Shown here one piece after another: positions 9,880 to 60,093 of a stretch of DNA of 64,000 bases. The notes under the pieces were generated by a model that saw nothing but the letters and a program-made list of their open reading frames with translations, was not told the origin of the DNA and did not search any database. The position numbers were made by a program, and so were the translations under genes. The stretch lies in IMG/VR virus record IMGVR_UViG_3300023048_000001, positions 64,001-128,000 of that record; one strand, written 5' to 3'. This DNA is from a virus (lineage: Duplodnaviria > Caudoviricetes). Numbering within the stretch: position 1 is the first letter of the stretch; each line of letters opens with the position of its first letter.

Positions 9880-11007
9880 ATGAAGTCATTATTTAATATT
9901 GAAAACACAAAATCACCGATGGAATGTAAAATATTCCTCGATGACGATAACAATGGGGTAACTTTATCTCGCTTTGAGCAGGTAAAGTATCCACGTATCC
10001 AGAAGCTAAGAGAAATCCAAGAGGGTTTCTTCTGGCGTCCACAGGAAATCGAAGTAACCAAAGATGAGAGAGACTTTAAGTCTCTCTCTGAAGCAGGTAA
10101 GCACATTTTCACAAGTAACCTGATGTTCCAGACCCTATTAGACTCTACGCAGTCTCGTGCACCTGAAGCATTGTTTGCATCGATCACTGCACTACCTGAG
10201 GTAGAACATTTCTGTAAAGCATGGGGATTCTTTGAATCAATTCATTCATTCAGCTATTCCTACATTCTAAGAAACATTATTACTAATCCATCAGAAGTCT
10301 TTGACAAGGTAACTGAAATTCAGGAAATTATTGACAGGGCTTCCTCAATTACAGCACCATATGATGACCTACATCACTATAATCAGTATGTTGACATCAA
10401 TGGCTATGATGATACACACACCAAATATAACCATAAGGTTAAAGTTTGGCGTGCATTGATGGCAGCTAATATTCTTGAAGGTGTTCGCTTCTACGTATCA
10501 TTTGCTTGCTCGTGGGCATTTGCTGAGCAGAAGTTAATGGTAGGTAATGCAGATATTATTAAGTTCATCTGCCGTGATGAAAACGTACACTTAGGTTTTA
10601 CTCAGTTCCTTCTAAAGACCTTACCTAAGGATGATTCAGACTACATCCAGATTTCCAAGGATTTGGAACAAGATAGTATTAACATGTTCCTCGATGCTAT
10701 CCAGCAGGAAAAGGATTGGGCAAAGTATTTGTTCAAGTTTGGTTCTATTTTGGGTCTAACTGAAGGCCTATTGGGTGATTACGTGGATTTCATTGCTAAG
10801 AAAAGAATGGATGCTATTGGTTTGAAACTTCCTTATTCCGTTCCTTCAAGTGATCCGCTTCCATGGACCCAAAGCTGGATTTCAGGTAAGGAAGTTCAGG
10901 CAGCAGCACAGGAAACCGAATTGACATCATATGTGATCGGTGTTCTAGATAAGAAGGTTGAACGACGTTCTGTCATTCGTAATTTGAAGTCTATGGGCAT
11001 TGACTGA
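9880..11007 (+). CDS. nrdB: Class Ia ribonucleotide reductase beta subunit
   Basis: FFWRPQEI, QTLLDS, ESIHSFSY (radical Tyr), EGVRFYVSF, RDENVH, QETELTSY. Confidence 0.97.
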   Translation: MKSLFNIENTKSPMECKIFLDDDNNGVTLSRFEQVKYPRIQKLREIQEGFFWRPQEIEVTKDERDFKSLSEAGKHIFTSNLMFQTLLDSTQSRAPEALFASITALPEVEHFCKAWGFFESIHSFSYSYILRNIITNPSEVFDKVTEIQEIIDRASSITAPYDDLHHYNQYVDINGYDDTHTKYNHKVKVWRALMAANILEGVRFYVSFACSWAFAEQKLMVGNADIIKFICRDENVHLGFTQFLLKTLPKDDSDYIQISKDLEQDSINMFLDAIQQEKDWAKYLFKFGSILGLTEGLLGDYVDFIAKKRMDAIGLKLPYSVPSSDPLPWTQSWISGKEVQAAAQETELTSYVIGVLDKKVERRSVIRNLKSMGID

Positions 11008-27739: not shown

Positions 27740-28181
27740 CCATCAGGTTTTTAACATGGTCAATCAAATTATAACCTAGATTGAGGAAAATCTCCCCAGC
27801 AGGATCATTGGCAAAGAAGTCAGCATCAAGGTCAATAGGATCAATCTTGTAATGGACTTCAATACCGTCATTATAATTAATTTCTGAATACATTCGCTCG
27901 CCACTGAAACCAAACAACTTACCATTGTCAGTTTGAAGGTGAATTGTCATCTTGCATTCTGAGTTTTCTTTCTTATTAAAATAGAAGACAAATCCATAGA
28001 TGACATATCCTTCGGGATGATTAGGAACCGACAAAGGAGCATACTCATAGCCTAATTTATTAGTCCAGCGTTCAACATCCTGCCCATAGATGACAAGACT
28101 TTCGATATCAGTGTACTCACCATTCATGAAGTTAGTTAATTCACCAATGGCATACACATTGGCCGGGTATTCATATGTCAT
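27726..28181 (-). CDS. Hypothetical protein
   Basis: 151-aa ORF, GAGG SD. Confidence 0.65.
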   Translation of the reverse strand: MTYEYPANVYAIGELTNFMNGEYTDIESLVIYGQDVERWTNKLGYEYAPLSVPNHPEGYVIYGFVFYFNKKENSECKMTIHLQTDNGKLFGFSGERMYSEINYNDGIEVHYKIDPIDLDADFFANDPAGEIFLNLGYNLIDHVKNLMDDER

Positions 28182-30739: not shown

Positions 30740-30838
30740 GGTAGTTCCTTGTGGTGTGGAGCCATTATAATGGAATTGACTTAGGTGTCAACACCTTTGT
30801 ATAAAAGAAAACCCCCTTTCGGGGGCTTGACTGTGAGG

Positions 30839-32594: not shown

Positions 32595-32776
32595 GATTCC
32601 TCTGTGGGTAGATGCATTATATACAATCATTGAGCATCACGCAACACTTTTTTATAATGAAATAGTGCTTGTATCAATTCGATTTCTATTATAAAATAGG
32701 ATGGAGGTTGGAGATAAGGAGAGGCTAAAAAACAAAGGCCACCCCTTGACAGGATGGCCTTTGTGTGTATGTTCAG

Positions 32777-33139
32777 TTAGAAGCTACGATCATAGAAGGG
32801 GTTGGCACGGCCAATGAAGGCATCACGAACGGTACCCTTGAGCTTGCCACGGACGATTACCTCATGCAGAGACGGTTCGCCAAGCGGTGTGGAATCGTTC
32901 TCCCAACCCTTGACAGCGTAGCCTTCGGATTCGAAGTCCACCTTCCACGACATTTCCTGCAACATGTAACCCTTGATCTTGCCATTCTTGCCGTAGACAA
33001 TTTCGGTCACCTTGGCAGGCTTACGATCACGACCATAGAGGATAGTAGCCCAATCACCCACCTTTGCGTCAGGCTTGGCCGTGGTATCAGCCATCATGCC
33101 GCTGTAGAGGTTGCCGTACTTCATGGTGTTGTTGCTCAT
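32777..33139 (-). CDS. Hypothetical early protein
   Basis: Element B leader; C-terminal FYDRSF. Confidence 0.75.
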   Translation of the reverse strand: MSNNTMKYGNLYSGMMADTTAKPDAKVGDWATILYGRDRKPAKVTEIVYGKNGKIKGYMLQEMSWKVDFESEGYAVKGWENDSTPLGEPSLHEVIVRGKLKGTVRDAFIGRANPFYDRSF

Positions 33140-33378
33140 GGGTCTATCTCCGTGTGGTGTGATGCTATTCTACTAAAGGAATGTGTATCACGCAACCCCT
33201 TTTGAGTAATTATTTTAAATTAAATTAGCACTTGCACCAATTCGATTTCTGTTATAAAATAGGGTTGTGGCTGGGAGAGCAAGTGATTGGGTAAAAAGAA
33301 ACCCTCTCCACACCACATAGAGAGGGTTCCGACTTGCTCAGTTGCTACATGCTACCGTGTCACACTCACCCGTATACT

Positions 33379-33921
33379 TTAGCGAATCTTGATGACCTTG
33401 ACAATCTCAGTCTTATCACCAATGCTTTCGGCAATATCCATTGCCATTTGCTGAATTTCAGCTTGGATACATTCAGTGGCGTATGATTCAATACCCCACC
33501 GGGATTCTTCAGGGCCTTCAACGGGATTCCCGTTTACATCCAGTAGCTTGACAGTGACACCAACATAGTGCCACTCACTCGCGAGCCAGCCCCGCAAGTG
33601 TTTCATATCTTCATTCACGGCAAGCTCAAGCGCCTTACCCGGATGCATATCCGGCTTCACACCATCTGCTACCCAACCTTGAGCTTTCGCTTTCTTCATA
33701 GCGCCAGCAAAGTCATAGAGCCAGATGTCATAACCATCAACATGGATGACACGCTCACCGGGAGCCTTGAACGAACGGTATCCATTGTTACGTGTGTTCA
33801 CATGGCGAACCGTACCGTGTGCATCCGAACGGTCCCACGGACATTCATTGTCAAGATCAACCTCAATGAAATACTGAAAGCTAAGACCATTGATAGAGAA
33901 GATGGTTTCATGAATGCGCAT
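33379..33921 (-). CDS. Hypothetical early protein
   Basis: Element B leader; WHYVGV..ESRWGIES. Confidence 0.75.
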   Translation of the reverse strand: MRIHETIFSINGLSFQYFIEVDLDNECPWDRSDAHGTVRHVNTRNNGYRSFKAPGERVIHVDGYDIWLYDFAGAMKKAKAQGWVADGVKPDMHPGKALELAVNEDMKHLRGWLASEWHYVGVTVKLLDVNGNPVEGPEESRWGIESYATECIQAEIQQMAMDIAESIGDKTEIVKVIKIR

Positions 33922-33978
33922 GGTGGTTCCCTGTGGTGTGGAAGCATTATAACGTAATTGGTCTAACTGTGCAACACC

Positions 33979-34374
33979 TTATTCAATATTGGTGCGCAGA
34001 TAGAGCCAGCCACGGGAAGATTCAGCTTCAATGTACCACTTGCGGAAGTCGTCACGCAATGGCTTGGAAATGGCATCACCCAAGCCATTGTCTTCCAACT
34101 CTTTACGATCCCAAAAGCCTACACCATGACCACGGGCAGTCAGGTACAGATCGTGGCCGAATGCCGCTTCAGGGCTTCCAGAGTCAGGATGGGAACCATA
34201 ACCCTCAACCGCCAGCACTTGACGGGAAAGCTTTGGATATGCTTTGACGAATGCTTCAGCATACTTGCGAGCGGACGCCAGAGCCTTTTTGGTAACCTGT
34301 GGGTTCTTATCCTCACAATCGGCCCATACTGCGACAATGCACATATGCTTGGCGATGATGTCGAAGTCGATCAT
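33979..34374 (-). CDS. Hypothetical early protein
   Basis: Element B leader; GHDLYLT..GHGVGFWDR. Confidence 0.75.
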   Translation of the reverse strand: MIDFDIIAKHMCIVAVWADCEDKNPQVTKKALASARKYAEAFVKAYPKLSRQVLAVEGYGSHPDSGSPEAAFGHDLYLTARGHGVGFWDRKELEDNGLGDAISKPLRDDFRKWYIEAESSRGWLYLRTNIE

Positions 34375-34603
34375 GAGGTTATCTCCCGTGGTGTGGAGCT
34401 ATTATAAAACAAATGGAAAGGGGTTGCAAGGGTTTTGTGTAAAATAAAAGTGCCGGGGGTTATCGTCCGGCGTCCCATTTCGTATTGTCTCATATGGAAG
34501 CGTTATAATGGCAAAGGGTCCGCTACACCCACCGTTCAGCCTAAGTCGTTACTAACCGCTACGGCTGACACGTCCGTAACATAGCGGTCTTCAGGGTTAG
34601 CTC

Positions 34604-34873
34604 TTACTCGTTGGGCTTGAGGAATTCAGGCCAGAGGAAGGCATGCATTTCGTTTTCCGAATTGAGCAGCCAATTGTGGATGCTATTGGGGATACGGTCG
34701 GATTCGTCACCGATTTCACCCGTGTCAACTGCGCAGTTATACGTTGCGCTGTCACCGTTGGGAGCGTAGACCATGGCGGGAGTACCAGCACCCGGATCGT
34801 CAGGAATGATTTCACTCTTATCGAGTACCAGCTTCCAGCCGTCTTTGGTAAGGGTCTTCACGTTATCGCTCAT
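34604..34873 (-). CDS. Hypothetical early protein
   Basis: Element B leader; DDPGAGTPAMV. Confidence 0.75.
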   Translation of the reverse strand: MSDNVKTLTKDGWKLVLDKSEIIPDDPGAGTPAMVYAPNGDSATYNCAVDTGEIGDESDRIPNSIHNWLLNSENEMHAFLWPEFLKPNE

Positions 34874-34942
34874 GGTGTATCTCCTGTGGTGTGATTCCAT
34901 TATACTGGAACCATGGCAGAATGCAATACTTTTGTTGAATAA

Positions 34943-35293
34943 TTAAGGGCTAAAGTATTCTTTGATAACCCTTGACGCTTCAGCAATATTATGGGTTAGC
35001 ATTTCATCAGAGATAGGACCAATCAATTCCCTGATATCTTTCTCATTGTCAAGGGTTATCAACCTATCACCGTAACCACCCATGGCGTCTACCATATTGG
35101 TTCCGTTAATGTCAAATGCCCTGTCATCATCGAGCAATACCCAAGCGTGACCGATGTAGGGATCGATTTCCTCGCACAGTTCTACCACCATTGTCAAGCC
35201 ATAGGCCCGATGCATGGCCAGTGCCAGATACATGCATTTGCCGCACATATAAGCATCGATGATTGACTCAGGTACGGGCTTGATGGCATGCAT
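34943..35293 (-). CDS. Hypothetical protein with possible Cys-His-Asp triad
   Basis: G.C..LALA..., HAWV...FDING. Confidence 0.55.
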   Translation of the reverse strand: MHAIKPVPESIIDAYMCGKCMYLALAMHRAYGLTMVVELCEEIDPYIGHAWVLLDDDRAFDINGTNMVDAMGGYGDRLITLDNEKDIRELIGPISDEMLTHNIAEASRVIKEYFSP

Positions 35294-35455
35294 TAATATC
35301 TACCAGATGTCTTATGTGTGGTTACATTATACACAATCCATTACATAACACAACTCTTTTTTATAATGAAATAGGTGTTGACTGATTTCGATTTCTATTA
35401 TAAAATAGGTTGTGGCTGGGAGACTGTGCATAATGGAACTAAGCACACCACGCAA

Positions 35456-35773
35456 CTACTTTGTTATACAGAAATCGTAATCAGGGTGACGTGCCAAGTA
35501 GTTCTTAAGAAATTCCTTAGCTTCGTCCATGCTGGCAAAATCATGCTGAAACGTTCCCCAACCCCACTGACCGTTTCCCTTGGGTACACGAATCATCAAC
35601 CTGATAGGTGCATGGTCACCAGTGCGAACACGATAGGGTGTATATTCATCTTTACAAGCCAGCATGGCTATGGTATCACCATCAGGCGTCTCGGCGCTGG
35701 GCCATCCTCGCCGTTCGAATGAACGATAACGACCAGTGGGTGCAGACTGGACTTTCCATGCATATTTAATCAC
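35456..35773 (-). CDS. Hypothetical protein
   Basis: 105-aa ORF, TAG stop. Confidence 0.65.
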   Translation of the reverse strand: MIKYAWKVQSAPTGRYRSFERRGWPSAETPDGDTIAMLACKDEYTPYRVRTGDHAPIRLMIRVPKGNGQWGWGTFQHDFASMDEAKEFLKNYLARHPDYDFCITK

Positions 35774-35966
35774 GATGGTTCACCAGTTGTTCATTCAGCA
35801 CTGCACACCTTGCATCAGCCTGACGCTTATGTTCGTGCAAGGGTACGGAACCATAGCAGTCCCATGGATATGCTGAATCGACTATGTATGATCCACGGCT
35901 ACCGTATCGAATAACACGGTAGCCAGTAAGGATGCCAGAGATGTACCACGGCAGGACTTCCCACAT
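35766..35966 (-). CDS. Small hypothetical protein
   Basis: MWEVLP..., AAGGTG SD. Confidence 0.5.
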   Translation of the reverse strand: MWEVLPWYISGILTGYRVIRYGSRGSYIVDSAYPWDCYGSVPLHEHKRQADARCAVLNEQLVNHRD

Positions 35967-35967
35967 G

Positions 35968-36174
35968 TTACACCACCTTGCGCGGATCGCGCGATTCAAT
36001 GATGTCACCCGTGGCGTAGTTCGTGGTGCGGTAATACATGGGACGGCCATCAACCATCTTGATACCGATGGAAGGATTGGCATTCAGGAAATCTTCAATG
36101 ACCATCTTCTGGATAGCAGCCTGACGAGTAGCGGCTTCGGTGTTGAAGACGTTGGGGGCGGTTGCGAGGGTCAT
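35968..36174 (-). CDS. Small hypothetical early protein
   Basis: Element B leader. Confidence 0.75.
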   Translation of the reverse strand: MTLATAPNVFNTEAATRQAAIQKMVIEDFLNANPSIGIKMVDGRPMYYRTTNYATGDIIESRDPRKVV

Positions 36175-36251
36175 TGTGTATCTCCTGTGGTGTGGAATCA
36201 TTATAACGTAATTGACCAGAGCCGTCAACAACTTTATATAAAAAAAGTCCC

Positions 36252-36503
36252 CTATTCGGGGACTTTGTTGATGAAGACGTGGAGTTCATCGAAGGCCGAT
36301 TCGTACAGTGCAGCCTTACAGTCTTGAGGCGTTCCGGTTTCCAGTGTCGAATCGATCTTACCATTTTCGAAAATGTCAATAGCGGACTTACCGTTACGGA
36401 CAGAGGCGATGTATCGATAACCTACATTCTCACCCTTGGCCTTGTCTAGCACGTTATTGACCATTTCGCAACGAGAGCGCAGACTTTCGTGAGTGAATCG
36501 CAT
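36252..36503 (-). CDS. Small hypothetical early protein
   Basis: GGAG SD, own promoter, terminator at 36241-36266. Confidence 0.7.
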   Translation of the reverse strand: MRFTHESLRSRCEMVNNVLDKAKGENVGYRYIASVRNGKSAIDIFENGKIDSTLETGTPQDCKAALYESAFDELHVFINKVPE

Positions 36504-36560
36504 GGTGCTATCTCCGGTGGTTAATTCCATTATACATGAAGCTCAACCATCGTACAAGGG

Positions 36561-36824
36561 TTAGCTATTCACTCCATAGAGCGCCAGCACGGCCTTCAGA
36601 TGGTGTTTGTTTGCGAATTCCAAGCGCTGAATCAGCATGATTTCTTCCACTGCGGATTCACACTTGACACCGAGATATGCCAGACCGATTGCCTTCAGGC
36701 CATTGTCCAACTGGTCCAGATTCGAACCCGGAATCATCTTAATGAATTCGACCACCATCTTACTGAAACCGTCGAAGTCGGTGGTGATGGTAAGAGCGGC
36801 GAGAGTATCAATGTTATCGGTCAT
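36561..36824 (-). CDS. Small hypothetical early protein
   Basis: Element B leader. Confidence 0.75.
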   Translation of the reverse strand: MTDNIDTLAALTITTDFDGFSKMVVEFIKMIPGSNLDQLDNGLKAIGLAYLGVKCESAVEEIMLIQRLEFANKHHLKAVLALYGVNS

Positions 36825-37001
36825 GGTAGTTCCCTGTGGTGTGATTACATTATACACAATCAATCCGGATATGCAACTCTTTTTTATAATGAAATAGGTG
36901 TTGACTGATTTCGATTTCTGTTATAAAATAGGTTGTGGCTGGGGAACCAGCATCAATTAAAATAAAACCCACCCTTGACAGGTGGGTTTCGTTATGATGG
37001 A

Positions 37002-37397
37002 TCAGCCGTATACGACGCTACCGAAGAGCATGTATTGCATGATGATATCAGCATCTTCACCATCGTAATTTTCATTCATCACGTTCATGATGCGGGAGAC
37101 AGGGATGGTATCCCAATTCTTCTTAATCAGTTCCAACGTGAGGATATGCTTATCTTCGCTCTCCATATCCGTGAAGGTGAGACCCTTACCCTTGCGGAGC
37201 ATTTGAGCCTGCACGTCTTCGATACAGATGGAACCTTTGATGGGCATGTCATCAGCATTGAGTTCAGCCTTGGCATCTTCGTACTCGTCATCATCATAAG
37301 ACAGTTCGAAACCGTAGTCCACAAAGAAGGGAAGGCCAGTGGTCAGAGCATGATAAGCAATGTTGATCATTTCTTCGTTCGTGGCGATCAGCTTCAT
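37002..37397 (-). CDS. Acidic hypothetical early protein
   Basis: Element B leader; C-terminal DADIIMQYMLFG.VVYG. Confidence 0.75.
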   Translation of the reverse strand: MKLIATNEEMINIAYHALTTGLPFFVDYGFELSYDDDEYEDAKAELNADDMPIKGSICIEDVQAQMLRKGKGLTFTDMESEDKHILTLELIKKNWDTIPVSRIMNVMNENYDGEDADIIMQYMLFGSVVYG

Positions 37398-37543
37398 GGT
37401 GTATCTCCTGTGGTGTGGAATCAGTATAACGTAATTCCAGATAGAGTCAACAATTATTTTAAATTAAATTGGCACTTGCACCAATTCGATTTCTATTATA
37501 AAATAGGTTGTGGCTGGGGAACTGACCGAAATGAAACCCGAAT

Positions 37544-37777
37544 TTACTCGGGCTTGCACGCTTGATCAAGGTTGAGGTGCCAGCTATCACGGGCACCATT
37601 GTGGTACAGGTAAGAGCCATCATTGAATCTGACGTTGGAAATCATGGTTCCACGCTGATCATCAATGACATACACTCCCGTAGCCTTGCCTTCACGCTGT
37701 AGCTTGGATATGACAGCCAGCACGAAATCAGGGCCACCATTGCGGGAATTGTCAAGGATTTCCTTCGCAATGGTCAT
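37544..37777 (-). CDS. Small hypothetical protein
   Basis: ATGA coupling. Confidence 0.6.
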   Translation of the reverse strand: MTIAKEILDNSRNGGPDFVLAVISKLQREGKATGVYVIDDQRGTMISNVRFNDGSYLYHNGARDSWHLNLDQACKPE

Positions 37778-38061
37778 GAATTCGGAACATCTTTAATCGT
37801 TACCTTTTTGGTCCACACGTCTTCCAGACCCGTGAGGTATGAATAGGCCGTCTGATAGGTCTCACGCGCAGGCTTATAGCCCAACCCTAGCACGCCACGG
37901 ACACCACCACTGGCATTTGTAACCTGCACCAGCTTGACACCACCATATGCACGGTCGAAATGGAAGTTACCCACTTCGTTAAAGGATTGCGGTGTGCCTG
38001 CTACACGATTGAGCATGGTTGCGAGGTTGTCAAAATCTTGTTTAGTGATACGGTCGGCCAT
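37774..38061 (-). CDS. Hypothetical early protein
   Basis: Element B leader; AYGG..L...GG. Confidence 0.75.
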   Translation of the reverse strand: MADRITKQDFDNLATMLNRVAGTPQSFNEVGNFHFDRAYGGVKLVQVTNASGGVRGVLGLGYKPARETYQTAYSYLTGLEDVWTKKVTIKDVPNS

Positions 38062-38264
38062 GTCTATCTCCTGTGGTGTGGAAACATTATAATGGAATTC
38101 ACAATGTAGTGCAACCCTTTTATAAAGAAAACCCCGCAATTAGCGGGGTTTGTGTCTGGCGTTGAACCGTGCGATACGCGCGTCACGGTGTTTGCTGCGG
38201 GGTTTGGTTGGGTTCCAATGGTCCCAACCCCATGATGGACGATAGTGGTAGTTCATGGTTATCC

Positions 38265-38657
38265 TTATTCGTGGCGGTCGTGAACAGAGAGGGGAGCGCC
38301 ATAGGTTTCGGCAAAGCGGCTGTCACTGGTATATGCCCAATTTCCGCCAGCCATGGGAGCATTCATATCACCTTCCACCTTGAGACGGTAGGGACAACCT
38401 TCCATTGCAGGTGGCAACACTTCGAAGATGACAGCACGCTTCCGGTAATCTTCAGTCATATCTTCCAATTTCCAATTACCACGCTCACATGGTACGAAAA
38501 AGCTTTTTGCATTGACTCCGAACGTATCCAGTGCCGTGACACCACCGTTTGTGCAGTCGGTTCCCATGCGCAGGATATCCACTAACAGGTAACGTCCACA
38601 TTCATTCAAGGCCTGAGCGCCAGCAAAGGTATGGGTAGTGAAGTGATTGAAGCGCAT
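38265..38657 (-). CDS. Hypothetical early protein
   Basis: Element B leader; DCTNGGV..MAGGN...SDSRF..HDR.E. Confidence 0.75.
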   Translation of the reverse strand: MRFNHFTTHTFAGAQALNECGRYLLVDILRMGTDCTNGGVTALDTFGVNAKSFFVPCERGNWKLEDMTEDYRKRAVIFEVLPPAMEGCPYRLKVEGDMNAPMAGGNWAYTSDSRFAETYGAPLSVHDRHE

Positions 38658-38839
38658 GGTGAAACTCCTGTGGTGTGGAATCATTATAATTGAATATACG
38701 CCAGTGTCAAGCATGATATTCAATTAAATTAGTTGTTGACTGATTTCGATTTCTGTTATAAAATAGGTTGTGGCTGGGGAACTATCATCACGGGAGAAGA
38801 AACCCCTCCACACCACATAGAGGGGTTCCGTGTTACACT

Positions 38840-39052
38840 TTAAGCGCGGAGCGAAAGAACCATGGCAACACCCGGCACGTCCTGCACTTCCAGAGCGCTG
38901 TAAATCTTCACGCCAGCATCCGAAACCATGAATGCACGGGCCGTATCATCGCTGGGGTTGATATTGTGGGTTTTGAGATATTCACGGAAGGCTTCCACAC
39001 CCTTGTCAGCGGCTTCGCCTATGGTGACCACGTTGATGACTTTGCGGCTCAT
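38840..39052 (-). CDS. Small hypothetical protein
   Basis: AAGGGA SD. Confidence 0.65.
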   Translation of the reverse strand: MSRKVINVVTIGEAADKGVEAFREYLKTHNINPSDDTARAFMVSDAGVKIYSALEVQDVPGVAMVLSLRA

Positions 39053-39083
39053 TTTGGTTCCCTTGGAAGTGAATTAGATTATA

Positions 39084-39383
39084 TCAGGAATTGTTGCAAG
39101 CGGCAAGCGCTTTGGCACGGCGTGCATCACGTTCAGTGATGGAATGCTTGGAATATTCTTTCTTGTAATGCTTGTTCAAAAACCCGTTGATGCTGCGCAG
39201 GTACTTGAACGAATTGTCGAATGCTGCCTTGTCGGCCTGATATTCGCGACTCAACCGGATATGTTCGGGAGTCAAACCCATCGGACCCTTCTCAGGATAC
39301 TTGTCATTCAGGATAGCTGACATACGGTCAACTTGAGCGTTGAACTCTTTTTGAACATCGAGGGCTTCTTGAAATGACATCAT
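39084..39383 (-). CDS. Hypothetical early protein
   Basis: Element B leader; GPMGLTPE. Confidence 0.75.
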   Translation of the reverse strand: MMSFQEALDVQKEFNAQVDRMSAILNDKYPEKGPMGLTPEHIRLSREYQADKAAFDNSFKYLRSINGFLNKHYKKEYSKHSITERDARRAKALAACNNS

Positions 39384-39459
39384 GGCTTTGGTTTCCTGTG
39401 GTGTGATTCCATTATACATGAACCACACTATGGGTCAAGCATTTCTTTTAAATAAAATG

Positions 39460-43075: not shown

Positions 43076-43373
43076 GGATCACATCCTCTGGTTGATGGTT
43101 TCAATATAACGTAATCACCTAATACCGTCAAGCATTATATTCAAAGAATTTCATTCAGCTTAGGTTCAGGTATAGTGTTATAAAATAGGTGAGGGATGGG
43201 AGAACGGGAAGTTCCTGTGATCGAGGCGTGAAGAAAAGGCTTGACCCCATCACCCGTTAAGCTAAGATGATGGAACCAAGCCTTCGTTGTTAAGACGCTT
43301 GAGCGTGCCCTCTACCTTTGTGAAGTCGGCCAGTACGTCTACCACTTCCCCTTCAGGATCGAAGATCAACCAT

Positions 43374-48739: not shown

Positions 48740-48815
48740 GTGGTGTGTTCCTTGTTGGTTGGTGTGTAAGTAATTCTAAAAGAATTGAACTAGGCTGTCA
48801 ACACTTTTCTTGAAA

Positions 48816-49213: not shown

Positions 49214-50059
49214 TCAAGCAACTTGTGCAAGCATTTCCACTTTCAAAGGGACGAAGTTAACCGTTTCGTCAAGCATATCGAATTCGCTGGGGTAGATGGG
49301 ATTGCGACCGATGCGCATGGTGCGGACACGACCATCCGCGTCACCGTAATAGTTGTCAACCTTGGCAACGGTAGAGGTAATGATAGCTTCCAGCTTGTCC
49401 GTATCAAACGTGATGGACAGTGTGTCACCAAAGTCAACATGACGACTATGGCTCTTAATGGCGATCATATTCATTTCCATGAACTGGATAAGGTCACTAT
49501 TGGAATGCTTGCCATAACGAGCCTGCGCACGATTCCAGCCACGGAATGACCAGATAAGTGCAGACTGAATAGCACCCATCTTCTTTTCGAATTCTTCCTG
49601 CTTACTCACGTCGAACGTCCACGTATCGGTACGCCAGTCATGCTTGGACAGGGCACGACGAATGGTCGTATAGCAATACCTATGGAAGTCACGCACCAGT
49701 GCACGCAGGATAGGATCATCCGGGAGTGGTTCATCGCACGGCTCGACCTTCCATTCACGTTGTTCAAGAAAGTTGTAGAAATCCGTATAGATGGTTTCCA
49801 GCATGTAATCACGGGAATGGTACTGATTCCACATACGCTTACCACAGCGAAACAGGAATGCGGCTCCAAAGGCCATCATTTCATCTTCAATGCTGTCCTT
49901 GTCATCTTCATGATGTTCGTACACATCATGGCACACCACATGCGGAGAATGGCACGGATCGAAGTGCGGACGATTCTCTATGCGCCAGCCACCGCTAGGA
50001 CCAAAGAAATGACCATTGGTGATTTCAGCATAAACAAACTTGCGGGTCTGGATCGTCAT
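49214..50059 (-). CDS. HDxxEH-motif putative metalloprotein
   Basis: GWR...FDP...HDVYEH...EMMAFG; element B leader. Confidence 0.7.
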   Translation of the reverse strand: MTIQTRKFVYAEITNGHFFGPSGGWRIENRPHFDPCHSPHVVCHDVYEHHEDDKDSIEDEMMAFGAAFLFRCGKRMWNQYHSRDYMLETIYTDFYNFLEQREWKVEPCDEPLPDDPILRALVRDFHRYCYTTIRRALSKHDWRTDTWTFDVSKQEEFEKKMGAIQSALIWSFRGWNRAQARYGKHSNSDLIQFMEMNMIAIKSHSRHVDFGDTLSITFDTDKLEAIITSTVAKVDNYYGDADGRVRTMRIGRNPIYPSEFDMLDETVNFVPLKVEMLAQVA

Positions 50060-50425
50060 AGGATTCATTCCTGTGGTGTGTTGATGGATTTAATTATACA
50101 CACCACCATCACTGATGCAAGTCCTTTTAAGAATGAAATTGAGGTTTTATTTTACACAAACGTATTGACTGATTTCGATTTCTATTATAAAATAGGATGG
50201 AGGCTGGAAGACTAGCCTCCCGAAACTGAACAAATAAAAAGCCCCGACCAACGTGGCCGAGGCTTTGTGTATCATTCAAGTTTGTATCATCTAAGTGTTA
50301 ATCAATTCTCAATATGGTTGTGAGCGGATTACATATAGATACCCTCGTTCATGATTTGATGTTACTGACAATGTTGCGTCTGAGGTTACATCTTACGGCA
50401 CCACCAACACTTTGTAAAGCTTTTA

Positions 50426-60008: not shown

Positions 60009-60093
60009 GCCACTATGGCGGAATAGGTAGACGCAGCAGACTTAAAATCTGCCGCCCTTGGGCGTCCGGGTTCGATTCCCGGTGGTGGTACCA
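60009..60093 (+). tRNA. tRNA-Leu (TAA)
   Basis: GCAGA-CTTAAAA-TCTGC, long variable arm, GGTTCGATTCC, CCA. Confidence 0.96.

Follow-up and report, generated by a model that had tools for sequence, protein, structure and literature searches.

Terminator hairpins with an invariant tip complementary to a shared early leader in a metagenomic phage genome

The stretch of DNA analyzed in this study (hereafter, the window; 64,000 nucleotides) represents bases 64001–128000 of the 174.6-kb virus record IMGVR_UViG_3300023048_000001 from the IMG/VR database, for which a completeness of approximately 50% was estimated by CheckV. A protein found in this record is also encoded on a 346-kb contig. The window harbors a ribonucleotide reductase gene, a GMP-reductase-like gene, genes for transfer RNAs (tRNAs), and many orphan genes, a gene content that fits a jumbo phage. 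Between approximately 29.5 and 58 kb, where the guanine-plus-cytosine (G+C) content reaches up to 47%, the minus strand carries a long series of small genes, each equipped with a near-consensus sigma70 promoter and many of them also with an intrinsic terminator. Two terminator hairpins of this early-gene cluster, designated hp1 and hp2, are the subject of the present work; their tips are complementary to a leader motif that is shared by about 20 early genes. The left edge of the cluster (approximately 29500) is marked by a sharp step in G+C content from 36–41% to approximately 47%, and past 58 kb the value is back to approximately 40%, near a tRNA-Leu gene at 60009.

The shared leader (element B) contains the motif CACACCACA, which occurs 20 times in the window compared to 0.73 expected occurrences. 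In total, 16 exact copies are located on the minus strand, 15 of them preceded by a sigma70-type -10 box and followed by a GGAG-like ribosome site ahead of an ATG; the exception is the copy at 48747, where the motif abuts the ATG directly. Together with three to five further copies containing one mismatch, approximately 19–21 early genes possess the leader, so that a preliminary description of this DNA, in which the hairpins were stated to be complementary to more than 20 leaders, was slightly generous in its count. The motif stands in the context of a TTGACA-like box, 16–17 nt, TATAAT, five bases (often GATTC), CACACCACA, the GGAG-like site, approximately seven bases, and the ATG. Judging from the usual promoter spacing, the first A or C within CACACCACA would be the transcription start, which would make the motif the 5'-terminal nine bases of a leader of approximately 20 nt.

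A second repeat of the region, element A, extends over 45–70 bp of the plus strand and is placed back to back with a minus-strand promoter. It consists of TTGACT (or TTGCAC)-N17-TAAAAT, followed by AGG(T/A)TG(T/G)(G/A)GGCTGG.

The hairpin hp1 follows an early gene encoding 180 amino acids, the stop codon of which lies 48 nt before the hairpin, and hp2 follows a 70-amino-acid early gene with its stop codon 10 nt before the hairpin (Table 1). Both were found to combine a GC-rich stem with a U-rich tract and to lie between a stop codon and the next promoter. Given the U-rich tract after each hairpin and the preceding stop codon, hp1 and hp2 represent intrinsic terminators of the gene strand. The predicted gene-strand fold of hp1 comprises 14 pairs, including three G-U pairs, with an energy of -20.6 to -22 kcal/mol, and that of hp2 comprises 13 pairs, followed by UUUCUUCU. 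In both hairpins, the 11-nt center reads CACACCACATA on the plus strand and AUGUGGUGUG in the minus-strand RNA, the latter being the exact complement of the leader CACACCACA. The existence of two terminator hairpins carrying the leader motif in inverted orientation in the loop, as put forward in the preliminary description, was thus borne out. A given 9-mer is expected within an 11-nt loop with a chance probability of approximately 1e-5, and a coincidental match was therefore excluded.

Table 1. Coordinates of the hairpins, leaders, and associated elements in the window.
Feature	Position	Strand	Sequence or remark
hp1, intrinsic terminator hairpin after the 180-amino-acid early gene	33298..33330	-	GAAACCCTCTC / CACACCACATA / GAGAGGGTTCC
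hp1 tip	33309-33319	-	gene-strand RNA reads UAUGUGGUGUG
hp1 U-rich tract	33289..33297	-	UUUCUUUUUA, begins inside the stem
hp2, intrinsic terminator hairpin after the 70-amino-acid early gene	38799..38829	-	GAAACCCCTC / CACACCACATA / GAGGGGTTCC
hp2 tip	38809-38819	-	identical to hp1 tip
hp2 U-rich tract	38790..38798	-	UUUCUUCU
Element A copy facing hp1	33231..33276	+	TTGCAC-N17-TAAAAT, then AGGGTTGTGGCTGGG
Element A copy facing hp2	38736..38781	+	TTGACT-N17-TAAAAT, then AGGTTGTGGCTGGGG
Canonical leader CACACCACA, predicted 5' end of the mRNA terminating in hp1	33932..33940	-	predicted unpaired in the full mRNA fold
Canonical leader of upstream promoter; transcript can cross the genes for 114 and 70 amino acids to hp2	39397..39405	-	no terminator between
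Leader of the gene downstream of hp1, among the 16 exact minus-strand copies	33153..33161	-	
Leader of the gene downstream of hp2 (DUF8317 protein)	38669..38677	-	
Decayed third family member	35435..35452	-	plus strand GGAACTAAGCACACCACG, 3' arm lost; homology to the relative L013 ends at 35451
Internal anti-leader UGUGGUGUG	49932..49940	-	in the coding region of a 284-amino-acid gene (49214-50068)

To evaluate the conservation of the tip, relatives of the phage were required. A near-identity search of GenBank phages returned no match to positions 33000–39100, no close kin of the early region was found among GenBank phages and in IMG/VR, and exact-pattern and protein-seeded scans of IMG/VR yielded a best relative with only 38% protein identity. 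Protein searches with the two hairpin-flanking genes recovered distant kin only, namely in phages of Pseudomonas, Xylella, and Brevundimonas. A search with the DUF7275 protein led to a 57-kb contig of the Joint Genome Institute (JGI) featuring 86% protein identity, and walking along it covered the orthologous early region of this relative (L013), which showed 74–79% nucleotide identity to the window. Furthermore, a metagenome scan with the core of element A resulted in 28 matches, one of them representing kin (L038, a 1.4-kb contig) and the others being due to chance. The hairpins were compared among the window phage and these two metagenomic relatives (approximately 75% nucleotide identity), in both of which early genes are preceded by the same leader as in the window phage.

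The preliminary description had named a lack of loop conservation in relatives as a finding that would speak against its hypothesis. The hypothesis withstood this comparison: the tip is invariant in all six copies from the three genomes (hp1 and hp2 of the window; hp1, hp2, and a third hairpin, hp3, of L013; and hp2 of L038), with flanks that have diverged. The ten bases AUGUGGUGUG are constant across the three paralogue families. While the hp1 orthologue of L013 is identical to hp1 of the window, the hp2 orthologues of L013 and L038 possess a 12-bp stem, CCCCTCTC/GAGAGGGG, compared to CCCCTC/GAGGGG in the window, and the tip is unchanged. The stem of hp2 in the window is two base pairs shorter than that of its orthologues, representing a compensatory loss, and stems across the copies differ by compensatory insertions or deletions of one or two base pairs. 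In hp3 of L013, which is intact at the position where the window retains only the decayed third family member (Table 1) and has the stem GGAACTA/TAGTTCC, the center AGCACACCACATGCC, and the tip CACACCACAT, the middle stem differs and the 10-nt tip is the same. The U-tract is absent from hp3, which is consequently not a terminator, and the corresponding messenger RNA (mRNA) features a leader at 10366.

The neighborhood of the hairpins has changed to a much larger extent. Between paralogues, identity in the 40 nt upstream of the hairpin amounts to 0.42–0.53, which is the random level, compared to 0.94 for the hairpin, and between orthologues the linker from the U-tract to element A is nearly unalignable. 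The 180-amino-acid protein upstream of hp1 (phrog_11104) is 51% identical between the two phages (33379–33921 in the window, 12736–13275 in L013), whereas the 54 nt immediately downstream, with hp1 among them, are 100% identical, a combination pointing to mosaic exchange or very uneven constraint. Among approximately 15 orthologous terminators, including hp1 and hp2, the loop was kept in 8 and changed in 7, and paralogous terminators, for example those at 30810, 36246, and 51302, differ in their loops; hence, terminator loops are not generally frozen. On this comparative basis, the constant tip provides good, although not conclusive, evidence of selection acting on the sequence itself.

Two further observations concern the surroundings of the hairpins. 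The sequence CAACUGAG (gene strand; 33331–33350 in the window) was detected 8–9 nt before hp1 of the window and of L013 and before hp2 of L013 and L038, and is absent from hp2 of the window; it may belong to the same RNA element or serve as a processing site. Moreover, an inverted, diverged element A (CTGATTACGATTTCTGTATAA...) abuts the decayed third hairpin of the window at 35440–35486 (minus strand); this copy runs across the last codons and the stop of a 105-amino-acid gene and looks like a recombination scar.

A constant tip could also arise without any pairing function, provided that it is the relic of an inverted promoter-leader module, left for instance by template switching or by recombination of modules, that the wobble pairs lengthen the stem, and that the identity of the orthologues results from a recent exchange of DNA blocks. 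The region indeed evolves via duplicated modules composed of terminator, element A, and promoter, and tip and 3' arm on the plus strand resemble the leader and its ribosome site (CACACCACA-TA-GAGAGG compared to CACACCACA-G-GAG); however, in the three paralogue families all ten bases are identical at random-level identity of the flanks, and the orthologues of hp1 and hp2 group by locus, indicating that the paralogues were not recently homogenized. The 4.7 kcal/mol that the three apical pairs (U-G, A-U, and U-G) contribute to the stem agree with the relic explanation, but selection for structure only would free the five loop bases and would permit a change from U-G to C-G. Likewise, some ordinary terminators are identical between the two phages as well, whereas loops drift in other paralogous terminators. 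Taken together, a relic devoid of pairing function is regarded as rather unlikely. A mobile palindromic element was rejected as an explanation, since hp1 and hp2 share neither common flanks nor terminal repeats.

Predicted RNA structures were used to distinguish between the two strands. In the minus-strand RNA, the 11-nt center of hp1 and hp2 is predicted to be closed by U-G, A-U, and U-G pairs around a GUGGU pentaloop, and in hp3 of L013 by C-G, A-U, and U-G pairs around the same pentaloop. All six copies form 12–15 pairs in the gene-strand RNA, of which two to three are G-U pairs that correspond to A-C mismatches on the plus strand, and fold energies range between -16 and -24 kcal/mol on the gene strand versus -10 to -17 kcal/mol on the plus strand. 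This bias in wobble pairs and energy was also observed for hp3, a non-terminator. The G-U pairs and the stronger energies indicate that the selected structure is that of the gene-strand (minus) RNA.

These findings bear on the proposal of the preliminary description that the plus-strand RNA starting from element A exposes the leader sequence and acts as a decoy. In such a reading, a short RNA presenting the leader sequence in an 11-nt loop that stays open would titrate a leader-binding protein or, as a cis-antisense partner, neutralize the gene-strand hairpin. The 11-mer is indeed unpaired in the predicted plus-strand fold, and the members of all three hairpin families are located 35–46 nt downstream of the -10 box of an element A. 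In addition, element A retains sigma70 geometry, and its -10 box and G-rich start are conserved in kin of 56–58% protein identity, while its spacer varies; the element is therefore probably a real promoter, as judged from these sequence features. On the other hand, A-C mismatches replace the G-U pairs on the plus strand in all copies, the plus-strand folds are weaker by 6–8 kcal/mol, the absence of a U-tract after the hairpin means that a defined short RNA is not predicted on the plus strand, and each predicted element A RNA contains a single copy of the motif, in contrast to protein sponges described so far. There is no known protein that binds the leader, and the transcript start of element A varies (UUGUGG or AUGGAGG) with the hairpin unchanged. 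Element A also faces ordinary terminators: seven of nine copies (defined by the 23-nt spacer pattern) point at the terminator of the preceding minus-strand gene at a distance of 30–70 nt. The location of hp1 and hp2 downstream of element A, correctly noted before, is accordingly not special to these hairpins, and the suggested linkage of elements A and B by the hairpins dissolves into the general layout of the region. Overall, a decoy role of the plus-strand RNA appears distinctly unlikely.

Two other roles of the plus strand were considered and rejected. Plus-strand coding after the hairpins is not supported, as the GTG and TTG frames are interrupted in L013 or L038. Pairing of the element A transcript start with the leader or the hairpin loop is limited to at most 5–7 bp, and the start varies while the hairpin is constant.

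A variant form of element A was noticed at 43179 (+), 57998 (-), and 62595 (-) in the window as well as at L043:3818, L045:601, and L045:4735 in more distant kin. In these copies, direct repeats of the type RTTCAG-N5-RTTCAG replace the -35 box; all of them keep (T/G)ATAAAATAG followed by the G-rich start, and this core is conserved in kin of only 56–58% protein identity. The variant is reminiscent of the T4 late promoter TATAAATA with its -10-only architecture.

The arrangement of motif copies on the DNA allows for yet another explanation, namely that a protein, e.g., a shut-off repressor, binds CACACCACA as a DNA site at +1 to +9 of the early promoters and at the inverted copies, thereby bracketing element A and the next promoter. 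In accordance with this, approximately 140–156 bp separate each hairpin copy from the inverted one of the next early promoter, but the spacing at the two loci differs by 16 bp and is thus out of helical phase, and the gene downstream of hp3 does not possess a canonical leader. The spacer of element A, which is conserved within the genome and less so in the relative, is operator-like; nevertheless, a DNA site would not need a hairpin, yet in three families that differ in their stems the motif occupies precisely the tip. We regard a DNA-binding site as very unlikely.

Pairing between tip and leader was evaluated energetically. Opening of the apical pairs of the tip costs approximately 4.7 kcal/mol, a 9-bp duplex with the leader yields -13.7 kcal/mol, and the leader is predicted to be unpaired in the full fold of the hp1 mRNA. 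Within the limits of standard folding, which cannot score a loop-leader contact, pairing between tip and leader thus appears thermodynamically feasible. Given that the tip is unchanged in the two relatives, the hairpin tips probably represent an RNA-pairing control device. More specifically, hp1 and hp2, together with hp3 of L013, may constitute a small family of 3'-end stem-loops whose tip pairs with a shared 5' leader, a reading that we favor tentatively and consider quite possible, without rating it as the expected outcome. In such a device, the tip AUGUGGUGUG would pair with the unstructured leader (C)ACACCACA, the predicted first nine bases of approximately 20 early mRNAs, which abuts the GGAG ribosome site of these mRNAs. 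Pairing would be expected to cover the bases adjacent to the ribosome site or to alter the fate of the 5' end, and early-gene expression would be damped or timed as a result. While the sequences, the terminator features, the pattern of conservation, the strand of the selected fold, and the thermodynamic feasibility are shown here, the encounter of the RNAs, the opening of the weak apical pairs, and the effect are steps that we infer.

Tip and leader could meet in cis or in trans. Leader and complement reside on one transcript in the case of the hp1 mRNA (leader at 33940), of transcripts running from 39405 to hp2, and of the hp3 mRNA of L013. Because the hp1 mRNA and the hp2 transcripts from the upstream promoter at 39405 begin with the leader, pairing in cis, with the leader at the transcript's own 5' end, would be possible. 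In the trans option, the terminator hairpin or a stable 3' fragment would act on other leaders. Cis pairing with the leader of the next gene in a read-through RNA was rejected as a general rule, since the gene after hp3 and its counterpart in the window have a different leader. A T-box-like pairing between GUGGU and the ACCA of tRNA was also dismissed, the complement to the leader being twice as long.

Beside the upstream promoter, the 70-amino-acid gene preceding hp2 has its own extended -10 promoter (TGATATAAT; 39053–39110, minus strand), which is embedded in the end of the preceding gene and conserved in L013; its leader is non-canonical. A further copy of the anti-leader UGUGGUGUG was found inside a coding region (Table 1), approximately 140 nt after the CACACCACA leader of the same mRNA. 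The minimum-energy fold of the first 220 nt of this mRNA pairs the leader with the internal anti-leader, the local word of which, GCAUGUGGUGUGC, equals the hp3 tip of L013. The internal anti-leader is conserved in the contig L011, as is the whole surrounding coding segment.

Several points weigh against tip-leader pairing. The preliminary description had assumed that the mRNA end exposes the anti-leader; the complement is present, but in the predicted gene-strand fold UGUGGUGUG is only partly exposed, GUGGU alone being unpaired, and accommodating a helix of 9 bp within the 11-nt loop would involve strain. Only two or three of approximately 18 terminators carry the tip, and the third member was lost from the window genome, so that the device must be dispensable in part. 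Some adjacent ordinary terminators are also identical between the window phage and L013, and block exchange may therefore inflate the apparent conservation of the orthologues. Furthermore, leader and tip are both retained in all three related genomes, without covariation. More distant kin (L043, L045, L046, L047, L052, L057, and L058) were examined for covariation as well, and either had the same leader, or had no hairpin within the contig, or represented unrelated high-GC phages; in particular, L043, L045, L057, and L058, which feature variant leaders, showed no such hairpin in their short contigs. With regard to the antisense regulator originally suggested, the conservation of the tip fits an RNA role tied to the leader, while exposure of the anti-leader, the decoy, and the link to element A turned out to be weaker parts of the proposal.

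Concerning the leader in these distant kin, the Logan contigs L057 and L058 encode homologues of the 180-amino-acid protein with 46–53% identity. The distant kin retain the promoter-leader start TATAATGGAAC-CACACC and then vary, continuing with CACACCAACAAGGA or CACACAACGGAG; in L057 and L058, the variants after this start are CACACCAACAAGGA and, immediately before the ATG, CACACCACC. Since TATAATGGAAC-CACACC is kept and the continuation differs, the first six transcribed bases represent the oldest part of the tag.

The complementarity could also operate in the opposite direction, with the terminator as the target. Leader RNAs, either abortive or short initial transcripts released from approximately 20 strong promoters or the 5' ends of abundant early mRNAs, would bind the tip and the upper 5' arm of the nascent terminator and weaken termination at the two or three sites concerned. 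A precedent is phage T7, in which abortive transcripts of the promoter phi10 antiterminate at T-phi, as demonstrated in vitro and in vivo (Lee, Nguyen and Kang 2010, PMC2952870); there, C+U stretches located in the 5' half of the stem are bound by the short RNAs. As in T7, part of an intrinsic terminator hairpin of the phage is the complement of the predicted initially transcribed sequence, which follows TATAAT plus 5 nt; unlike in T7, the complement is centered on the tip, with a further 4 nt in the 5' arm of hp1 and hp2, and does not extend to the GC-rich lower stem, and transcription presumably depends on the host polymerase. For hp1, the leader together with GGAG can pair with UCUC(A)UGUGGUGUG over 13 bp with one bulge, and folding leader and hp1 jointly gains 3 kcal/mol over folding them separately, whereas hp3 of L013, with no U-tract and thus not a terminator, does not contain the extra complement to GGAG. 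Moreover, the downstream genes have their own promoters, so that the benefit of read-through is not obvious. Antitermination by leader RNAs is hence judged unlikely.

For the pairing of a terminator tip with early leaders, other RNA systems offer partial parallels. The c4 antisense RNA of phages P1 and P7 and the CI RNA of satellite phage P4 are structured phage RNAs complementary to repeated targets near ribosome sites or leaders, which are processed from a leader transcript and control the immunity operon. The hairpins described here are likewise encoded within the transcription unit and hold a 9–10-nt exact complement to 16 leaders, of which only GUGGU is predicted to be unpaired; here, however, the complement is located in the tip of an mRNA terminator, and the targets would be approximately 20 separate early mRNAs. 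The Rfam C4 model did not match in a cmscan search of positions 28000–58000, and neither the hairpins nor element A were assigned to any Rfam family in this search (E up to 1), which returned tRNAs and chance-level matches only. In Staphylococcus aureus, the 3' untranslated region (UTR) of the icaR mRNA reportedly pairs with the Shine-Dalgarno (SD) region of its own 5' UTR. Like icaR, the hp1 mRNA features leader and anti-leader at its 5' and 3' ends, respectively; unlike icaR, with its anti-SD sequence in a long 3' UTR, it contains the complement to bases upstream of the SD sequence, inside the terminator tip. Small RNAs derived from 3' UTRs, such as CpxQ, DapZ, and SroC, share the terminator of the mRNA, are Hfq-dependent, and have their seeds upstream of the terminator. 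Here too, the candidate regulatory RNA would consist of an mRNA 3' end with its terminator hairpin, with the difference that the complement resides in the terminator loop and not in upstream single-stranded RNA. In sponges of the CsrB/RsmZ type, each RNA harbors the motif many times, and the protein bound by it is known. If read as a decoy, the loop would likewise display a copy of an mRNA-leader motif, but there is one copy and no known protein, and the fold is favored on the other strand. To our knowledge, neither c4/CI, icaR, and the 3' UTR-derived small RNAs nor the T7 system features a complement to a shared 5' tag in the tips of ordinary terminators, and we know of no description of intrinsic terminator hairpins that double as sequence-specific trans-regulators.

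If tip-leader pairing holds true, the loop of an intrinsic terminator would convey further, sequence-specific information, and a giant phage would co-ordinate a class of early mRNAs by means of one common 5' tag and a small number of 3' anti-tags, no separate small RNA gene being needed. Phages would thereby be credited with an additional, compact mechanism for the timing or damping of early expression, and a 9-nt tag and a 33-nt hairpin, both with sigma70 promoters, would provide a simple test system. An extended version is conceivable in the form of a three-layer circuit, in which approximately 20 early mRNAs bear the 5' tag, the anti-tags in the terminator tips of two or three early operons close or silence them, and cis-antisense RNAs from element A with a copy of the tag neutralize the anti-tags, so that the early program would be timed; we consider this circuit very unlikely.

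Two other minus-strand terminators, located at 32732–32764 and 36964–36990, also share a common loop. It reads CTTGACA on the plus strand and contains the -35 hexamer TTGACA. The basal stems of these two terminators differ from each other, and both terminators are unchanged in L013.

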